Source: a virus
Lineage: Duplodnaviria > Heunggongvirae > Uroviricota > Caudoviricetes
Length of the DNA stretch: 44,897 nt
IMG/VR virus record: IMGVR_UViG_2872688378_000003
Strand: one strand, 5' to 3'
The position numbers and the translations under genes are program-made. Positions within the stretch are counted from its first letter, which is position 1. The number at the start of each line of letters is the position of its first letter. Below, one piece after another: positions 1,917 to 24,940 of this stretch. The notes under the pieces are model-generated. The model worked only from the letters and a program-made list of their open reading frames with translations. It had not been told where the DNA came from and did no database searches.

Positions 1917-2849
1917 ATGGACAACGACAAAATTGATCAACACAGCGACGAAATTGAAGTTGAGAGCGAAGAAAAAGAGCGCGGCAAAAAAATAGAAATA
2001 GATGAAGACCGACTCCCCTCCCGGGCGATGGCAATTCATGAGCATATCCGCCAGGATGGTGAAAAAGAGCTGGAACGCGACGCAGTGGCGCTACTGTGGT
2101 CAGCCATTGCGGCGGGTCTGTCGATGGGCGCTTCGTTACTGGCAAAAGGGATATTTCAAGTCGAACTGGAAGGTGTGCCGGGCAGCTTCTTGCTGGAGAA
2201 TCTCGGTTATACCTTTGGTTTTATTATCGTCATTATGGCCCGCCAGCAATTATTTACCGAAAATACCGTGACTGCGGTACTACCCGTCATGCAAAAACCG
2301 ACAATGAGCAACGTCGGCTTACTTATACGGTTATGGGGCGTCGTGCTGCTGGGTAATATTCTCGGGACAGGTATTGCGGCGTGGGCATTTGAATATATGC
2401 CTATCTTCAATGAAGAAACTCGCGATGCATTTGTCAAAATCGGCATGGATGTGATGAAGAACACCCCCAGCGAGATGTTTGCCAACGCGATCATTTCCGG
2501 CTGGCTGATCGCCACTATGGTTTGGATGTTTCCTGCAGCGGGTGCGGCAAAGATTGTGGTGATTATATTGATGACCTGGCTTATTGCCCTGGGTGACACC
2601 ACCCATATCGTGGTCGGTTCTGTTGAAATCCTCTATCTGGTGTTTAACGGTACGCTGCACTGGAGCGATTTCATCTGGCCCTTCGCACTACCTACTTTAG
2701 CGGGGAACATCTGCGGCGGCACCTTTATCTTCGCGTTAATGAGTCATGCACAGATTCGTAACGACATGAGCAATAAGCGTAAAGCAGAAGCACGCCAAAA
2801 AGCAGAACGTGCGGAAAACATTAAGAAAAATTATAAAAACCCGGCATAA
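1917..2849 (+). CDS. yfdC: Formate/nitrite transporter family inner-membrane protein YfdC
   Basis: 310-aa ORF, hydrophobic multi-pass membrane protein; position immediately upstream of argW as in K-12. Confidence 0.8.
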   Translation: MDNDKIDQHSDEIEVESEEKERGKKIEIDEDRLPSRAMAIHEHIRQDGEKELERDAVALLWSAIAAGLSMGASLLAKGIFQVELEGVPGSFLLENLGYTFGFIIVIMARQQLFTENTVTAVLPVMQKPTMSNVGLLIRLWGVVLLGNILGTGIAAWAFEYMPIFNEETRDAFVKIGMDVMKNTPSEMFANAIISGWLIATMVWMFPAAGAAKIVVIILMTWLIALGDTTHIVVGSVEILYLVFNGTLHWSDFIWPFALPTLAGNICGGTFIFALMSHAQIRNDMSNKRKAEARQKAERAENIKKNYKNPA

Positions 2850-2924
2850 ATGGCGAGGGTTTAAGCAATCGAGCGGCAGCGTACTTACCCCGCACTCCAT
2901 TAGCGGGTATACTCATGCCGCATT

Positions 2925-2999
2925 GTCCTCTTAGTTAAATGGATATAACGAGCCCCTCCTAAGGGCTAATTGCAGGTTCGATTCCTGCAGGGGACACCA
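2925..2999 (+). tRNA. argW: tRNA-Arg (anticodon CCU), argW; prophage integration site (attL side)
   Basis: 75-nt sequence GTCCTCTTAGTTAAATGG...GGTTCGATTCCTGCAGGGGACACCA with T-loop GGTTCGATTCC, CCA end and anticodon loop CTCCTAA. Confidence 0.95.
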
Positions 3000-3124
3000 T
3001 TTATCAGTTCGCTCCCATCCGTACCAGTCCGCAAAATCCCCTGAATATCAAGCCTTCCGTAGATTCACAGTTCGTCATGGTTCGCGTCAGATCGTTGACA
3101 GCCGCACTCCATGACGGGTAAAAA

Positions 3125-4318
3125 GTGGATAAAATAATTTTACCCACCGGATTTTTACCCATGCTCACCGTTAAGCAGATTGAAGCAGCAAAGCCGAAAG
3201 AAAAACCATACCGCCTACTCGATGGTAATGGCCTGTACCTTTATGTCCCTGTGTCAGGGAAAAAGGTATGGCAGCTTCGCTACAAGATTGACGGTAAGGA
3301 GAAAATCCTGACCGTCGGAAAATATCCGCTAATGACTTTGCAGGAGGCAAGAGATAAAGCATGGACCGCGAGGAAAGACATCTCGGTTGGCATCGATCCG
3401 GTAAAAGCGAAAAAGGCTTCGTCTAACAACAATTCCTTTAGTGCCATTTACAAGGAATGGTACGAGCACAAGAAGCAAGTCTGGTCAGTAGGCTATGCAA
3501 CTGAACTTGCCAAAATGTTTGATGACGACATTTTACCCATCATCGGCGGTCTTGAGATTCAGGATATTGAGCCGATGCAACTGCTGGAAGTAATCCGCAG
3601 ATTTGAAGATCGCGGTGCAATGGAGCGAGCCAACAAAGCCCGCAGAAGATGCGGCGAGGTTTTCCGTTACGCTATTGTCACCGGCAGGGCTAAATATAAC
3701 CCGGCACCTGACCTTGCTGACGCCATGAAGGGGTACCGCAAGAAGAACTTCCCGTTTCTTCCTGCAGACCAGATCCCGGCATTCAATAAAGCACTGGCAA
3801 CATTTTCAGGAAGTATCGTATCGCTCATTGCCACCAAGGTTTTACGCTACACTGCCCTAAGAACGAAAGAGCTTCGTTCCATGCTATGGAAGAACGTCGA
3901 TTTTGAAAACAGGATTATCACCATCGACGCCAGTGTGATGAAAGGACGCAAAATTCATGTGGTCCCGATGTCAGACCAGGTGGTTGAACTTCTCACTACG
4001 TTAAGCTCCATCACCAAACCAGTATCAGAGTTTGTTTTTGCCGGGCGCAACGATAAGAAGAAGCCAATCTGCGAGAATGCGGTACTGCTTGTGATCAAAC
4101 AAATCGGCTATGAAGGTCTGGAAAGCGGTCACGGATTCAGGCATGAATTCAGCACGATTATGAACGAGCACGAATGGCCTGCTGACGCTATTGAAGTGCA
4201 ACTGGCACATGCCAACGGCGGATCTGTGCGCGGGATTTACAACCATGCTCAGTATCTCGATAAGCGCAGAGAAATGATGCAATGGTGGGCGGACTGGCTT
4301 GATGAAAAGGTGGAGTGA
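3125..4318 (+). CDS. intS: Tyrosine integrase, P4/IntS family (prophage integrase)
   Basis: Translation contains the characteristic N-terminal MLTVKQIEAAKPKEKPYRLLDGNGLYLYV motif and C-terminal catalytic region (...HGFRHEF...YNHAQYL); likely true start is the ATG at 3161; lies directly after argW. Confidence 0.9.
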   Translation: MDKIILPTGFLPMLTVKQIEAAKPKEKPYRLLDGNGLYLYVPVSGKKVWQLRYKIDGKEKILTVGKYPLMTLQEARDKAWTARKDISVGIDPVKAKKASSNNNSFSAIYKEWYEHKKQVWSVGYATELAKMFDDDILPIIGGLEIQDIEPMQLLEVIRRFEDRGAMERANKARRRCGEVFRYAIVTGRAKYNPAPDLADAMKGYRKKNFPFLPADQIPAFNKALATFSGSIVSLIATKVLRYTALRTKELRSMLWKNVDFENRIITIDASVMKGRKIHVVPMSDQVVELLTTLSSITKPVSEFVFAGRNDKKKPICENAVLLVIKQIGYEGLESGHGFRHEFSTIMNEHEWPADAIEVQLAHANGGSVRGIYNHAQYLDKRREMMQWWADWLDEKVE

Positions 4319-19483: not shown

Positions 19484-19987
19484 TTAAATCTTCCAGGAAA
19501 TTTCTGCATTGCCGTTAGCATCACCGGCACCTGTGAATTCAGCGTTGGTCAGCACCACGTTTTTGCCACTGACTGACGTGGCCATGAATCCACCCAGCGG
19601 CACTTTGATGGATGCATCAGTGGAGACGACAACGTATACCGGGTCGCCTTTTTTGATGGTGCTGGCATCAAAATCAGAACCGAGATTAACGGTCACGTAG
19701 CCACGCTTCATTGCGTCGCCCGGGAAGTTCTTGCCACTCCCCACCTGGCGAACCATGTCCGGCTGCGAAGTGGTCGGATAAGGGCGCACATAGATCCCCT
19801 TCACCTTGTCTGCGGTATCACCATCTGCCAGCGGCACGAAAAAACCGTCATCATCGTATTTACCAGCCAGCCCATAGGCAGCGAAGGCGTTATCGGATTT
19901 AAGGACCACCGGTTCGACGGTTAAGTCCTGCGGGCGAGAGATAGCCCCGGCAATGCCAACAGGCATCCGGTACAGATATGCAGTCAT
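19484..19987 (-). CDS. Head decoration/cement-like protein (167 aa)
   Basis: ORF between protease/scaffold and capsid genes. Confidence 0.4.
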   Translation of the reverse strand: MTAYLYRMPVGIAGAISRPQDLTVEPVVLKSDNAFAAYGLAGKYDDDGFFVPLADGDTADKVKGIYVRPYPTTSQPDMVRQVGSGKNFPGDAMKRGYVTVNLGSDFDASTIKKGDPVYVVVSTDASIKVPLGGFMATSVSGKNVVLTNAEFTGAGDANGNAEISWKI

Positions 19988-19991
19988 TGGA

Positions 19992-21212
19992 TTATCCTTT
20001 GCGGTTAGACCAGAATTCGGCGTTTTGTTTGTTCAGGGAAGCGATGCTGGTCATGCCCATGTTTGGGCGCTGTGCATCGCCGGTGGTGGCGCGGGTGTTT
20101 CGCCCTTTGGCAATCTCAGACACGGCATTAAACGCCATGTCGACCGATTGTTTCGGCAATTTGCGGATATCCGCATCACCGACGATCTGGCGAACCAGCG
20201 TTTTATCTGCGGAAGACAGAACCTCGCGTTTGAACGCGGTAGGTTTCATCTTACGGCTCAGATCGATACCCGGGACGATAACTTCGGCACGCCAGGCTGA
20301 GTCACCAGTAATCGTGGTTTCCTCTTCATCGTCCTCGCCGTCACCGGTCGGATTATCGTCAGGCTTATTGTCGTTATCGCCCGTCGCATTTCCTTCCAGC
20401 TTAGCCAGCAGGGCTTTCAGTAATGTTTTGAGGTCATCATCACTGTCGCCGGTTGGACCTCCACCCATCTCTGGTGCTTTGTCCGGTAGTGGTTGCTGCG
20501 GGGACAGGTTGATGTTGAGATTAACGCCCTGCGGCAAATCCCCCTCATCTCCTGTAACCGATGCGGGAGCCGACTCCACCAGTTCGTTCATGGTGTCGGC
20601 ATCTCCTGTCTTGATGGCTGCACGCATGCGGTTCCACCAGTTTTTCTTTTGATTTGCCATTGTGTCTCTGTCTCCAATTGCACAACGATTTCCGGCTCTG
20701 CCTTTGGGGACAAGAGCCACATGGTTTCCGGTAATATCGACCTGCTCGGCTTTACCTGGCTCGGTCTGCTCGTACTCCGCGTCATAGCCGCACGACACTT
20801 CACGCAGGCCATCTTCGATAAGCTGAATGGCGCTTTCGTCTTTGACGATAAGGTCAGCCAGCATCAAATCAGACTGGTCACCAGTCCCGCGCCGCACATT
20901 CTGAAGGTGCCCGACAGCAAGCTCTTTCCAGTTCTCGGGATTTACCAGCCGCACATTCCCGTTTTCATCTTCAGGATGCAGGATCGTGATGCTCATCCCT
21001 TCGAATGAGGCGAGCGTGGCCGGATGGAATACCTGCTCAGGAGAACGCGTTACGACTATCTCACCGAGCTTGTCGGGTTTGAGGTTTGGCAGATCGGCAG
21101 AGCCGTAGAGCTGCTTACCCGTTCGACCTATCGGCACGTCTTTGCACAGCAGCGAGCCGTCAGCCAGCTGATAGCGGGTTTCCCCCAGCCTGGTATTGAA
21201 AAAATATTTCAT
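19992..21212 (-). CDS. Prohead protease / scaffold protein
   Basis: 406-aa ORF with acidic low-complexity stretch (...GDSDDDL...DDNPTGDGEDDEEETT...) typical of scaffold domains. Confidence 0.55.
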   Translation of the reverse strand: MKYFFNTRLGETRYQLADGSLLCKDVPIGRTGKQLYGSADLPNLKPDKLGEIVVTRSPEQVFHPATLASFEGMSITILHPEDENGNVRLVNPENWKELAVGHLQNVRRGTGDQSDLMLADLIVKDESAIQLIEDGLREVSCGYDAEYEQTEPGKAEQVDITGNHVALVPKGRAGNRCAIGDRDTMANQKKNWWNRMRAAIKTGDADTMNELVESAPASVTGDEGDLPQGVNLNINLSPQQPLPDKAPEMGGGPTGDSDDDLKTLLKALLAKLEGNATGDNDNKPDDNPTGDGEDDEEETTITGDSAWRAEVIVPGIDLSRKMKPTAFKREVLSSADKTLVRQIVGDADIRKLPKQSVDMAFNAVSEIAKGRNTRATTGDAQRPNMGMTSIASLNKQNAEFWSNRKG

Positions 21213-21226
21213 GGTTTACCTGCGAT

Positions 21227-22000
21227 TCAGGCGAGATAAGAATGAGGGTTGGGAAAAACGATTTCTTTATAACAGCGACAATTCGGGAGCTCGCCAGCGT
21301 GACCGGTCATGCCATCAAGCGTTGGAGGTTTGCCCCATTCGACAAACTTACCTTCCATCTCCCGATGAGAATGCCGGACGTCGCCATCTTCGGCTGTACG
21401 CCAGATATAACCATTCGAACCGATTGACAGCGCACGCGCCTGATCGAGCGCGCCGGTTGCGCGTCCAAGCTCGGTACGGGCGATAAGGTTCGCTCGTGAG
21501 CGTGACACGTCACCGGACGCAGCTATCTCTTTCGCGAATGGCTCAGCGCGGCCACCAGTCACAACAGCCTCGATGGCTTTGTTCTGAATGTCATATACCC
21601 GATCGGCGGCCTCAAGAGGCAGCGATTTGATGTACTTAATTTGCTCGATCACGATGGATTTCATCACCTGGCCTACCGGGGCGCGGTCGACCATGTTGCG
21701 CAGCTCTGCGCTGATGTTCCTGCTGTGCTGACGCCACTGCTTTTCATTCTGGCGCGCAATGTCGGCGGTAAAGTTCTCAGCAACCTTCGTCGCCCAGGGG
21801 GTGATGATTTCGCTGTAGCGCTCCAGCGCATCCATTATTTCGGTGACACTGTCATTTGAACCATCGTAGCGACCATTTACGATATCCCCGACCGCCCGCG
21901 CTATCTGCCGTAGGCTCGTTCGATATCGGATCTCCGCCTGGCGACTCTGGCGGTTTGTCGCCAAGTTCGCCGATGCCTGGCGGCGCTTCGTCTTCGGCAT
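21227..22000 (-). CDS. Head morphogenesis protein (Mu gpF-like)
   Basis: Follows portal; ORF-track start overlaps portal 3' end by about 150 nt; an internal ATG near 21835 would remove the overlap. Confidence 0.55.
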   Translation of the reverse strand: MPKTKRRQASANLATNRQSRQAEIRYRTSLRQIARAVGDIVNGRYDGSNDSVTEIMDALERYSEIITPWATKVAENFTADIARQNEKQWRQHSRNISAELRNMVDRAPVGQVMKSIVIEQIKYIKSLPLEAADRVYDIQNKAIEAVVTGGRAEPFAKEIAASGDVSRSRANLIARTELGRATGALDQARALSIGSNGYIWRTAEDGDVRHSHREMEGKFVEWGKPPTLDGMTGHAGELPNCRCYKEIVFPNPHSYLA

Positions 22001-23318
22001 TCTCTATGTCCTCGTCGGTAATGGATGCCCCGATGCCGGTTACGTCAGAATTTTCGCGCAAATCGGTCATAGCGGCTTTCAGTGTCATCAGACCATCACC
22101 CAGCGCCGTACTGATTGCGTTGGTAGTGTTTAACGCCACCGTTGAGCGATCGACATCAGACATTTGCCAGAGCGGGTTAAACTCAAACGTGAAATCGTCC
22201 GGCAGCGGCTTACCGAGTTCCGAGCGGTGCATAATGTCCAGTATCCGGCGCATCGGCATCCGTAAGCGGCGCTCCTGCAATGAGCTCACCCGGTCGTAAT
22301 AGTTGGCAAGATCTGCATCACCGGTGGAAAATCCTTTCGGGGACTGTCCGAACAACCGCACCAGTGGAATACCAACAGCGCCACTAATCTGTTCTGCAAA
22401 CTGCGATAGGATGTCATCCAGACCACTGAAGCTGTACTGATGCGTTTCAAACTTATCCCGCGAGTCCATGAGCGTCATGCCTTCATTGCTCTGGAACTGG
22501 CGGATCAGGTCGATGTTCTTCAGCAACGCTTCGAAAGCTGGGCCACCAAGCGCGATAATCTCGCGCAGCTTCTCCACGCTGTAGGTGCGCAGATGCGCTT
22601 TGTAGACCAGCTGAGCCGCGCCGACAGTGGCGCTGTCGAACGCAGTAAGCCGATCCCAGATTCGCTCTACAACCGACATTCCCCATTCGTTTTCGGTCAT
22701 CTTCTGCTGGAATGGCAGCGTCACCCCGTCGAAGCGAATCAGGCGGCTGTGATGGATGCGCCAGGCAGGAATTCCCGTTGCAGTGGTCACCACGTCGTAA
22801 AACTCAGGTTTACCCAGGTCCGGCCCCATCTCTTTAATGCGGCGGGTCAGCACCGGGTTAATCATCCAGCGGTCGAGCGGGAGAATCCCCTTAAACTTGC
22901 CCTTACCGATGGTTTCGGGTCGCAGCGGGGTCATTGGTGCCTGCCCCTCAATCATGATGAAACCCACCGCGCCGCCGTAGAGGCGCGACCATTTCAGCAC
23001 GTCATTCAGCGCATCCCAGATTTGCAACTCATCCAGTTGTGATTCGAGAATGCCACGATCTTTTGCATCAATTTCCGAAGTGATGCGAATGCCTTTGCGG
23101 GTCATATCATCCGGGATAGCATCGACTGCTTCGCCGATGATCCAGGATGAACGATAGGACCATTCCACCAGCATGCGGTTACGACTGGTGAAATTAGCCC
23201 GGTAGGTGGATGCTGAGTGCTGGTTAGGTGTCTGCATCCCTACGCGGGCAATAAAATTCTCATAACCATCAGCTGTGGCCTGCGCAGTTCGCCGCAGGGC
23301 TTGTTTGTTTCGTGCCAT
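21852..23318 (-). CDS. Portal protein
   Basis: 488-aa ORF immediately downstream of terminase large subunit. Confidence 0.75.
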   Translation of the reverse strand: MARNKQALRRTAQATADGYENFIARVGMQTPNQHSASTYRANFTSRNRMLVEWSYRSSWIIGEAVDAIPDDMTRKGIRITSEIDAKDRGILESQLDELQIWDALNDVLKWSRLYGGAVGFIMIEGQAPMTPLRPETIGKGKFKGILPLDRWMINPVLTRRIKEMGPDLGKPEFYDVVTTATGIPAWRIHHSRLIRFDGVTLPFQQKMTENEWGMSVVERIWDRLTAFDSATVGAAQLVYKAHLRTYSVEKLREIIALGGPAFEALLKNIDLIRQFQSNEGMTLMDSRDKFETHQYSFSGLDDILSQFAEQISGAVGIPLVRLFGQSPKGFSTGDADLANYYDRVSSLQERRLRMPMRRILDIMHRSELGKPLPDDFTFEFNPLWQMSDVDRSTVALNTTNAISTALGDGLMTLKAAMTDLRENSDVTGIGASITDEDIENAEDEAPPGIGELGDKPPESPGGDPISNEPTADSAGGRGYRKWSLRWFK

Positions 23319-24940
23319 CAGGCCTGTCTCCCTAGCAGCTCCCAGATGTTCAGGGCTGAATTCATTGGCGCGTAGCTGATCATCACCGAGTCGGCAAGGT
23401 TTGGCGACCGGGTTCCATCAGGCTGTTTATCAATAACGATTTTTCCCACACCATTAATTGAATAGGTCGGCTGCGAAAGCTCGATGATGAGTTTATCTTT
23501 GAGTGCCATGCTACTGCTGATTGATATGATTTCGTCCGGGTTGTAAGCCATACCTTCAACCACGGCGCGCCAGGTATTCTGAAAAAGTTTACGTAACCGC
23601 CACCAGCTCTGGGCTTTGGCGTTAGCGAAGAAGTCCTTGTTCAGACGTGCGGCTTGCCCGTTGTCCCCGCGAACAGCTTCATCATCCGGATCAAATACCG
23701 CGCCACTACCTCGAAACGGTGTGGCGAGTATTGACGGTCGACGCGCAGCGTTACGCAGTTCGTTGATAGCGCGCGCATCGCCGCGAACGCCAGCGCCCAG
23801 CCCGTCCTCGTCAAAGCGAAACTCTTCGAGGTTGTCCTGTTCGCAAAAGCCGAAAACCTTCTCGACGGACTGATAAATGTCGCTGCCCACACCGGACCAT
23901 TCCCGCACGTTCTCCAGGAGGAAGCCGTGACGGGTCGAAAAGGCGTTTTTGTCCCGGCCTTCGTCGGCGACGTCCATCGCGCCCAGTCGCTTGCCTGTTG
24001 GCTGGATGCCCAGCTTGATATGCGCGTCGACAGCAGCCTGTACCCAGTCGGATGGGATCAGGACGCCTTCCGCTGATGCGCTGTAGTTCAGATCAAGTTC
24101 CTGTGCCACCACCACCGGATTATCGATTTTCTCGCATTCCCTGCGATACCACTCTTCATCCTTGCGAGGATCATCCCGCCAGTGGAATGTGAATACCGGT
24201 ATCTTCCCGCCATGACGCTTCTGAGCGAACGGGTTAGCCATGCCGTTAACTGAACTCAGGTCGATACGGCAACGCGTCGTTTGTGACAACGCCGCATCAA
24301 TCAGCAGAGGACGCTGAAGGAATGCAGCCTCATCAACCAGATAAAGCGTGGTACGGTCACCACGACCAATATTATCGCCAGCCTCGCCTTTGATAACGGC
24401 ACCAGTTTCAGGAAACTCAACACGCATATATGGCGCGTGCTTCTTCTCGCTCCACGAACCGCGAAACTCTACAGGCAGTGTTTCCACGAACTTGCGCGCC
24501 TTCCAGAACAATGCTTTCGGGTCACCGGTGCTGTCGACGTATTCCTCTTTACGGGAGCCGAAACCGATAACCATTTCTTTGTTGAAGAGACAAAGCGAGC
24601 AGGCCAGTCCGATCGCGGTCCAACTGAGCCCCATTTCACGGGATTTTTCGGTAATACCATTCTCCCGATTGCCCCAGCGTTCCATAATCCAGTGGATCCA
24701 CTCCTCCTGCTTAGGGAAGAGTAAAAACGGAATGGTCACCGGCAGGCCATAATCAATATTACGCGGGTCCGTTGTCATGCCCCAGTCGATGATGAACTGA
24801 GCCGGATTGGTTCGGTAAAACTGTTTTAGTGCAGGCAATATTTCAGGATTCTGGCGAATGCGCTGTAGGCGTTCCATCCGCCATTCAAAAACCATCTGGT
24901 AATCAGGATGTTTAAAATCGAAGGGAAATGGTAACGGCAT
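23318..24940 (-). CDS. Terminase large subunit
   Basis: 540-aa ORF after small terminase gene; ATPase-like N-terminal half and nuclease-like C-terminal half. Confidence 0.8.

Follow-up and report, generated by a model that had tools for sequence, protein, structure and literature searches.

The portal/MuF overlap

The 44,897-nucleotide window analysed here (IMG/VR record IMGVR_UViG_2872688378_000003, Caudoviricetes) carries a phage portal gene and, directly downstream, a gene for a MuF-like minor head protein, and the open reading frames (ORFs) of the two share 149 nucleotides (nt). All features described here lie on the minus strand, and positions are those of the window. The portal gene (23318..21852) encodes a 488-amino acid (aa) protein of the Phage_portal_3 / DUF1073 family (PF06381, E = 1.5e-106, residues 55-402), and phrog_146 spans its residues 3-488. 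The longest ORF of the MuF/SPP1-gp7-like gene (22000..21227) runs from the ATG at 22000 and encodes 257 aa. Its product scores above the curated cut-offs of both PF04233 (66.3 bits, cut-off 29.6, E = 5e-18, residues 137-243) and TIGR01641 (44.5 bits, cut-off 39.65), and phrog_324 covers its residues 5-255. The dual-coding overlap (21852..22000) places MuF in the +1 frame relative to the portal gene, in agreement with a first-pass annotation that had put it at about 150 nt in another frame.

The predicted MuF start codon (21998..22000) consists of the last two bases of a portal Asn codon (AAT) and the first base of an Ala codon (GCC). A Shine-Dalgarno (SD) sequence, GAGGA (22009..22013), lies 8 nt upstream of this ATG within the Glu-Asp codons of the portal ITDEDI motif. 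The first part of the overlap (21941..21997) encodes MuF residues 2-20, which are basic and variable, over an acidic, proline-rich portal segment, AEDEAPPGIGELGDKPPESP. MuF residues 1-20 (MPKTKRRQASANLATNRQSR) contain six K/R and zero D/E, so the N-terminal extension is as basic as it had first been described. Averaged over the relatives, the MuF segment has a net charge of +6.6 (range 4-9) and the portal peptide on the same bases one of -4.5. The second part (21855..21940) encodes MuF residues 21-49, the conserved block QAEIRYRTSLRQIARAVGDIVNGRYDGSN, which is overprinted by the final ~29 codons of the portal gene. It includes a doubly constrained 12-mer, CTACGATGGTTC (21858..21869), that is read as Y-D-G-S in MuF and as L-R-W-F in the portal protein. 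The portal stop, TGA (21852..21854), spans MuF codons N49-D50 (AAT GAC).

Two other codons in the MuF frame have to be considered as starts. A TTG at codon 13 (21962..21964) is a possible minor or alternative start, as implied by 245-aa NCBI proteins. An ATG at codon 56 (21833..21835), 17 nt past the portal stop, is the start in RefSeq/GenBank records and is rejected here. This is the internal ATG that the first-pass annotation had located near 21835.

The sequence is an Escherichia coli prophage. Five complete E. coli chromosomes carry its portal/MuF stretch at 100% identity, strains with a fully identical sequence including CUVET20-1667 and ETEC4089, and 338 of the 5,426 complete E. coli genomes have a related copy of the region. 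Among phages, the nearest are Citrobacter phage Omnitron (92.8%) and Escherichia phage vB_EcoM-606R2 (91.8%), followed by Salmonella phage SEN34 (Brunovirus, 89%) and Hafnia phage yong1 (84%).

A stop-free 55-codon upstream extension would arise by chance with a probability of about (61/64)^55, or ~0.07, and an overlap in a single sequence is consequently not beyond chance. Its significance comes from comparative data, since nearly all of 84 related loci share this +1 overlap, which has a median length of 149 nt and reaches 100 nt or more in 74 of them. The comparison set comprises 80 loci from one-genome-per-species bacterial assemblies, mostly Enterobacterales with a few alpha- and betaproteobacteria, whose MuF proteins are 99% to 46% identical to that of the window; several counts use the 84 related loci. 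All counts treat these loci as independent, and none is tree-corrected. Diversity by codon position was calculated pairwise among 33 unique close relatives. Openness of the portal frame was assessed in 73 unique loci by resampling MuF synonymous codons according to each gene's own usage.

Conservation of the MuF start

The predicted SD:anti-SD duplex has a free energy of -5.9 kcal/mol at ATG 22000, -2.5 kcal/mol at TTG 21964 and +0.1 kcal/mol at ATG 21835, which supplies the scoring of candidate starts that had been proposed as a check. A value of -5.9 kcal/mol is reached by just 10.7% of the ATGs on this strand (median -2.4 kcal/mol), and ATG 21835 is weaker than the median. Neighbouring genes have values from -2.4 to -8.8 kcal/mol. 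An ATG (GTG in three Yersinia loci) is present 15-24 codons upstream of residue 21 in 80 of 84 loci, and the SD free energy is -4.5 kcal/mol or stronger in 76 of these 80.

The start and its ribosome-binding site (RBS) are also conserved at sites that are synonymous in the portal gene. The portal N/D/H codon that gives the 'AT' of the start codon ends in T in 44 of 44 unique sequences, unlike the Asp codons at motif positions 3, 5 and 11, where the GAC:GAT ratios are 26:28, 13:39 and 13:10. The codon at the Glu position that supplies the SD is GAG, AAG or CAG wherever the MuF start is present. An nAGGA sequence and the start codon occur together in 45 of 55 unique motif sequences, and neither occurs in 8. 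At the level of sequence, the pattern at ATG 22000 and GAGGA is what selection on an internal translation start would be expected to look like. RNA folding z-scores of -0.73 around the MuF start (22060-21930) and +0.10 in the conserved core (21960-21820) give no sign of structure, and RNA structure therefore explains neither the nucleotide conservation nor a sequestration of the RBS.

Photorhabdus loci have lost the usual ATG (AGC or GAA at its position) and have GAA in place of GAG. Four codons further upstream these loci have gained another ATG, whose SD reaches -9 to -10 kcal/mol. In L067-L069, L071, L073 and L078 (locus positions ~2440-2500) this ATG is formed from the portal codons GAT-GAA, so that in this lineage the start has moved to a different place within the portal gene.

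The overlap could be genuine and yet have its main or an additional MuF start at TTG 21964, in which case the protein would have 245 aa and the overlap 113 nt. A length of 244-245 aa is given for many NCBI prophage proteins, an ATG is found at or next to codon 13 in several relatives (MTTKS, MSTHQ and similar), and MuF residues 1-12 are without MuF-specific constraint. Pantoea-like loci have a strong SD at this position (-6.6 to -8.0 kcal/mol). Codon 13 of the window, however, is a TTG with a weak SD, and the codon is not conserved, being CTN in several lineages. Many others (Xenorhabdus, Yersinia, Rahnella/Rouxiella and the Citrobacter/Enterobacter group) have no start there. The upstream ATG and SD are near-universal and fixed at portal-synonymous sites. 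We consider the TTG start unlikely.

The Citrobacter/Enterobacter/Trabulsiella group (L045-L055, L059, L072 and L076) has a second in-frame ATG (MNLKP...) 8 codons past the conserved one, with a very strong SD (-10.2 kcal/mol) in several loci. The start may differ in this subgroup, and the overlap would then still be 125 nt.

Codon periodicity and the portal tail

The frame that dominates the pattern of variation changes hands ~60 nt into the overlap. Upstream of 22000 there is a clear portal-frame pattern with a portal wobble diversity of 0.49-0.65, and this pattern is weakened but persists from 22000 to 21971. Between 21970 and 21941 there is no pattern, all three codon positions have diversities of 0.46-0.57, and indels are present. 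From 21940 on, variation is highest at the MuF wobble position (0.35-0.42) and low at that of the portal frame (0.11-0.21). Across MuF residues 21-49 the diversities of the first, second and third MuF positions are 0.113, 0.161 and 0.383. Between 21855 and 21940 the portal gene's own wobble position is thus among the least variable and its first codon position is the most variable. Despite this switch, the portal frame stays open to 21852.

These values leave room for a reading in which the overlap and the MuF start are real and the last ~30 portal residues are a functionless, disordered read-through that is not under selection. Between 21940 and 21855 the periodicity is that of MuF alone, and there is free variation in tail residues such as SAGGRGYRK / SASRGRHSR. 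The portal extension is absent in Chitiniphilus, Oxalobacter, Alkanindiges, Ochrobactrum and Bosea. The nearest solved relative of the portal protein, the Pam3 portal (8hds), aligns at residues 15-413, and among the PDB matches listed none reaches past residue 451, leaving the C-terminal tail uncovered.

Several observations contradict an unselected tail. When MuF codons are resampled, the portal frame remains open to the observed stop with a median probability of 0.07 in the conserved core and 0.04 in the whole overlap, but it is actually open in 73 of 73 unique loci. The third frame is open in only one of the 73, and the portal-equivalent frame is stop-free in 14-17% of equal-length windows in non-overlapping MuF sequence. 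MuF wobble diversity is 0.383 in the overlap versus 0.569 in the rest of the gene, a reduction of one third. The 12-mer CTACGATGGTTC is constrained in both frames. Among 72 unique loci, Y45 is TAC in all 72 (62% elsewhere in the gene), D46 is GAT in 69 (53% elsewhere) and G47 is GGT in 69 (32% elsewhere). Because these codons are fixed at sites that are synonymous in MuF, exactly where portal R-W-F is encoded, the R-W-F sequence is kept in the portal protein. The wobble base of codon 44 varies freely, giving portal L, L, I or V, and Enterobacterales portal tails end in ...[L/I/V]RWF followed by 0-11 residues.

An unselected tail is therefore improbable. Purifying selection is apparent in each frame of the overlap, both in the periodicity and in the fixed TAC, GAT and GGT codons, with loci counted as independent. 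Both frames are also kept open, the portal frame beyond chance and the MuF frame, together with a start codon, in 80 of 84 loci. These comparisons show that both frames of the overlap, as well as the MuF start signals, are under selection. A count of T avoidance at MuF wobble positions in stop-prone contexts (1/451 versus 672/2178) was dropped as circular, since the portal stop is defined as the first stop, and was replaced by the synonymous resampling and by the third-frame and empirical-window controls.

A different version of the overlap end is found in four high-GC (guanine plus cytosine) loci, one from Chelatococcus (L058) and three from Cupriavidus/Ralstonia (L060, L061 and L074). Here GFPPGDP replaces the MuF sequence YDGSND, and the portal tail ends ...WLSAWRS.... 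The overlap is 161-167 nt in L060, L061 and L074 and at least 272 nt in L058 from its sole candidate TTG starts. Since these overlaps are similar to or longer than that of the window, the long overlap is not confined to Enterobacterales.

The MuF N-terminus in orthologs

In a 23-protein alignment the residues G38, I40, Y45, D46, S48, N49 and I55 are invariant. All are encoded upstream of codon 56, and M56 itself is variable. The codon aligned to M56 is ATG in 37 of 84 loci and elsewhere TCG, ATT, ATC, GCC, CTG, CAG or others. All 80 genome loci have homologous residues 18-55, at identities as low as 46%, and the orthologs carry 16-21 residues before the residue-18 block, which fits a start at codon 1.

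The most informative orthologs are those in which the portal gene ends earlier. Only 4 nt, ATGA, are common to the portal gene (PF06381, 876-2441) and the MuF gene (2438-3202) of Bosea (L084). The Bosea MuF protein has 254 aa, its Pfam domain lies at 139-245 (137-243 in the 257-aa form of the window), and its residue 22 aligns with window residue 18, where the alignment starts. In Chitiniphilus (L063) the overlap is 92 nt, the portal gene ends at MuF residue ~31, and residue 17 aligns with window residue 18. These two orthologs are 47-51% identical to the window protein, and residues 18-55 align even though the portal gene ends earlier or barely overlaps. Because the block is conserved where the portal gene does not cover it, residues 18-55 are MuF coding sequence independent of any overlap.

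Product lengths point the same way for MuF, with 257 aa in the window and 254 aa in the low-overlap Bosea protein. They disagree for the portal protein, whose tail past the Pfam domain is 86 aa versus 58 aa in Bosea, a lineage-specific extension of ~28 aa. The extended MuF protein does not behave like a 5'-extension artefact (Palleja class i), since it matches ortholog length and its extension is homologous.

It is accordingly very improbable that the 5' extension is a misprediction and that MuF starts at ATG 21835 with 55 upstream codons open by accident. Existing annotations (RefSeq E. coli genomes, SEN34 and yong1) do use this start, and the ~0.07 chance of an open extension would by itself allow it. 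Yet this ATG has no SD and is replaced by ATT even in the close relative 606R2, the ortholog-length criterion of PMC2478687 favours 257 aa, and MuF codon periodicity begins at residue 21 rather than 56. Starting at 21835 would also drop 35 residues that are conserved down to 47% identity and are retained where the portal gene ends earlier. M56 was considered separately as a reinitiation site after portal termination, giving a short isoform, and was rejected because the codon is unconserved and lacks an SD.

Interpretation of the overlap

The reading that we favour, with a probability of about 0.82, is that the portal and MuF genes truly overlap by 149 nt and that two separate proteins are made from the shared bases. 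The first-pass annotation had posed a choice between an internal start and a genuine overlap, and had regarded the answer as not obvious from sequence alone. Comparative sequence analysis settles the choice for the overlap; the internal ATG, with no SD and an ATG in only 37 of 84 loci, falls away.

MuF translation would be initiated independently at ATG 22000 by means of GAGGA, both of which lie within the portal ...ITDEDIENA... codons, and ribosomes translating the portal gene would traverse the MuF RBS. The first ~60 nt of the overlap would combine a conserved acidic, proline-rich portal segment with a loosely constrained basic MuF N-terminal segment. The last ~90 nt would combine the strongly conserved MuF block (residues 21-49) with a lineage-specific portal C-terminal extension of ~30 residues. 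This extension may be mostly a passenger of MuF, yet one that is kept open and ends in a selected [L/I/V]RWF. In the +1 frame an acidic GAN codon becomes a basic or polar ANN codon, which may explain why an acidic portal tail is superposed on a basic MuF N-terminus.

Some points weigh against this interpretation. The SD and ATG lie inside a conserved portal motif, so their conservation is partly a by-product, and the argument uses synonymous positions only. MuF residues 1-20 have no MuF-specific codon periodicity, and the exact MuF start is consequently placed by the conservation of the ATG and SD, not by that of the protein. The good SD sequences at the TTG 21964 position in some Pantoea-like relatives would allow a second start there. 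The loci compared are not phylogenetically independent. An AlphaFold2 model of the 257-aa MuF protein (23-sequence alignment) has a mean predicted local distance difference test score (pLDDT) of 55.8, with residues 5-113 below 50, and so poor a model does not demonstrate that residues 21-55 join the fold. The literature searched contains no proteomics, N-terminal sequencing or ribosome profiling for this phage group.

The remaining alternative is that the overlap serves a programmed +1 ribosomal frameshift producing a portal-MuF fusion, instead of or besides free MuF. MuF is in the +1 frame in almost every locus, positions 496-708 of phrog_2662 (annotated as a portal protein, 717 positions) match MuF residues 26-248, which points to natural portal-MuF fusions, and SPP1 gp7 binds the portal (PMC5576092, PMC6316719). 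We regard a frameshift as highly unlikely, because the zone for a productive shift (from the portal motif to MuF residue 21) varies more than any other part (0.46-0.57 at every codon position, with indels) and has no conserved slippery or hungry-codon site of the prfB or SPP1 gp17.1* type, the codons before the portal stop differ by lineage (WFK*, WFKR*, WFTGQR*, WFSG* and WF*), a conserved ATG and SD at synonymous sites would be needless, and the constant +1 frame is inherited and not independent evidence.

If MuF is translated independently from within the portal gene, the arrangement may couple portal and MuF translation or, more speculatively, may tune the MuF:portal ratio. The acidic portal tail, the basic MuF segment and the portal RWF sequence could also form a docking interface between the two proteins that is forced to co-evolve, a doubtful proposal. 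The acidic portal tail and the basic MuF segment are present as well in Bosea relatives with the 4-nt overlap, which is compatible with an old interaction on which the overlap was superimposed later.

Origin and relation to known systems

Relatives form a graded series of overlaps, from 4 nt in Bosea (whose portal is distantly related) through 47 nt in Alkanindiges, 68 nt in Oxalobacter and 92 nt in Chitiniphilus to ~150 nt in Enterobacterales, which shows how such an overlap can grow. Because the Bosea overlap is just ATGA and intermediate relatives have 47-92 nt, the long overlap probably arose by overprinting from a short coupling overlap, with the portal stop shifting downstream and the MuF start upstream.

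Short overlaps of the ATGA/TGATG type are represented by the Bosea portal/MuF pair and by the TGATG junction between the terminase and portal genes of the window, and SPP1 has AUGA junctions (PMC6316719). The MuF start of the window differs from these in lying 149 nt before the portal stop. Termination-reinitiation coupling cannot operate over this arrangement, and initiation would have to occur on an RBS that is traversed by elongating ribosomes.

A survey of prokaryotic genomes recognized no real co-directional overlap above 60 bp (PMC2478687). The portal/MuF overlap resembles the overlaps accepted there (up to 56 bp) in being co-directional and conserved across genera, with both protein ends conserved. 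It differs in being ~2.7 times longer at 149 nt, in belonging to a prophage rather than to core genes, and in showing selection directly, at positions where a change is silent in the other frame.

Overprinted viral genes offer a closer comparison (PMC8227390, PMC6195259). As in those overlaps, one of the two frames dominates selection and the other is a constrained passenger, and both products are biased in composition, with a basic MuF segment over an acidic, proline-rich portal segment. Unlike them, the portal/MuF case is a partial terminal overlap of two old, unrelated structural genes rather than a nested de novo gene, and the dominant frame switches within the overlap. The literature searched contains no description of this portal/MuF overlap. 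The sequence comparisons mark it as a well-supported new case within a known class, that of overprinted overlapping phage genes. Its length of 149 nt, the sequence-level selection acting on both frames and the visible point at which one frame takes over from the other make it a rare one. Since either product can be eliminated by a mutation that leaves the other unchanged, what the MuF N-terminus and the portal RWF tail do can be tested directly.

SPP1 gp7 is reportedly, from the title of a study by Stiege et al. in 2003, a DNA-binding protein that is targeted to the procapsid through the portal. The basic MuF N-terminus of the window fits the description of gp7 as a DNA-binding protein that reaches the procapsid via the portal (PMC6316719). 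Like SPP1 gp7 and phage Mu gpF, the MuF protein here has PF04233 and TIGR01641 matches and is encoded directly after the portal gene, the location that defines the MuF superfamily (PMC5576092). In SPP1, gp7 is a portal-binding protein with a copy number per capsid of one to two (PMC5576092) or a few (PMC6316719). The MuF protein of the window has no toxin extension and no solved structure detectable by sequence, PDB searches by profile and by single sequence with E up to 10 having returned nothing. A long out-of-frame overlap with the portal gene is not mentioned for the SPP1 gp7 or Mu gpF genes in PMC5576092 or PMC6316719.

Public annotations

Public records disagree about the MuF start, a discrepancy that the first-pass annotation did not foresee, just as it did not foresee selection on the overlapping portal tail. 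RefSeq E. coli genomes, SEN34 and yong1 start at ATG 21835 and give a 202-aa product. The record of vB_EcoM-606R2, which has ATT at codon 56, starts at a GTG at codon 82 (176 aa). Many NCBI prophage proteins have 245 aa, corresponding to TTG codon 13, or 244 aa, corresponding to an adjacent ATG that is seen in L001, L010 and L011. Metagenome gene calls start at ATG 22000 and give 257 aa.

On this evidence the RefSeq/GenBank records examined that have 176- or 202-aa MuF products are truncated. RefSeq WP_062810249.1 and the SEN34 and yong1 records miss 55 N-terminal residues and the 606R2 record misses 81, and a stretch that ranks among the most conserved in the protein is lost with them. Reference databases thus contain a shortened version of a widespread prophage protein, and the main practical value of the overlap lies in correcting this annotation and in providing a clean test case for dual-frame selection.

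One 388-aa ENA protein (P0073), encoded on a 2.1-kb contig, joins PF09950 (DUF2184) to a MuF domain with 98% identity over the MuF part. It could derive from a rearranged prophage or from an assembly chimera.

Atypical loci and neighbouring genes

Two loci of the comparison set have incomplete versions of the region. The second copy in Pantoea stewartii (L031) has MuF from residue 23 and a portal-frame ...RWFK* end without a portal gene upstream, and it looks like a prophage remnant with a breakpoint inside the overlap. In Apirhabdus apintestini (L016) MuF is split between frames soon after the overlap, and the best-scoring frame matches the window protein no earlier than residue 68, suggestive of a pseudogene or of an error in sequencing.

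The gene order around the overlap is terminase, portal, MuF, DUF2213 and cement-like protein, so that MuF stands in the context typical of its superfamily. The terminase large subunit gene (24940..23318) and the portal gene share one base between stop and start (TGATG, 23316-23320), the usual coupling arrangement and unlike the 149 nt found one gene on. Downstream of MuF are genes for a DUF2213 protein (PF09979, 21212..19992) and a cement/minor-capsid-like protein (19987..19484). The genes in this interval (19484-21212) match DUF2213 and the cement or minor-capsid families of XM1 gp53, E217 gp24 and Pam3 gp6. Because both these genes and the nearest solved relative of the portal protein (8hds) match that group, the head module appears to belong to the Pam3/E217/XM1-like group of myophage heads.

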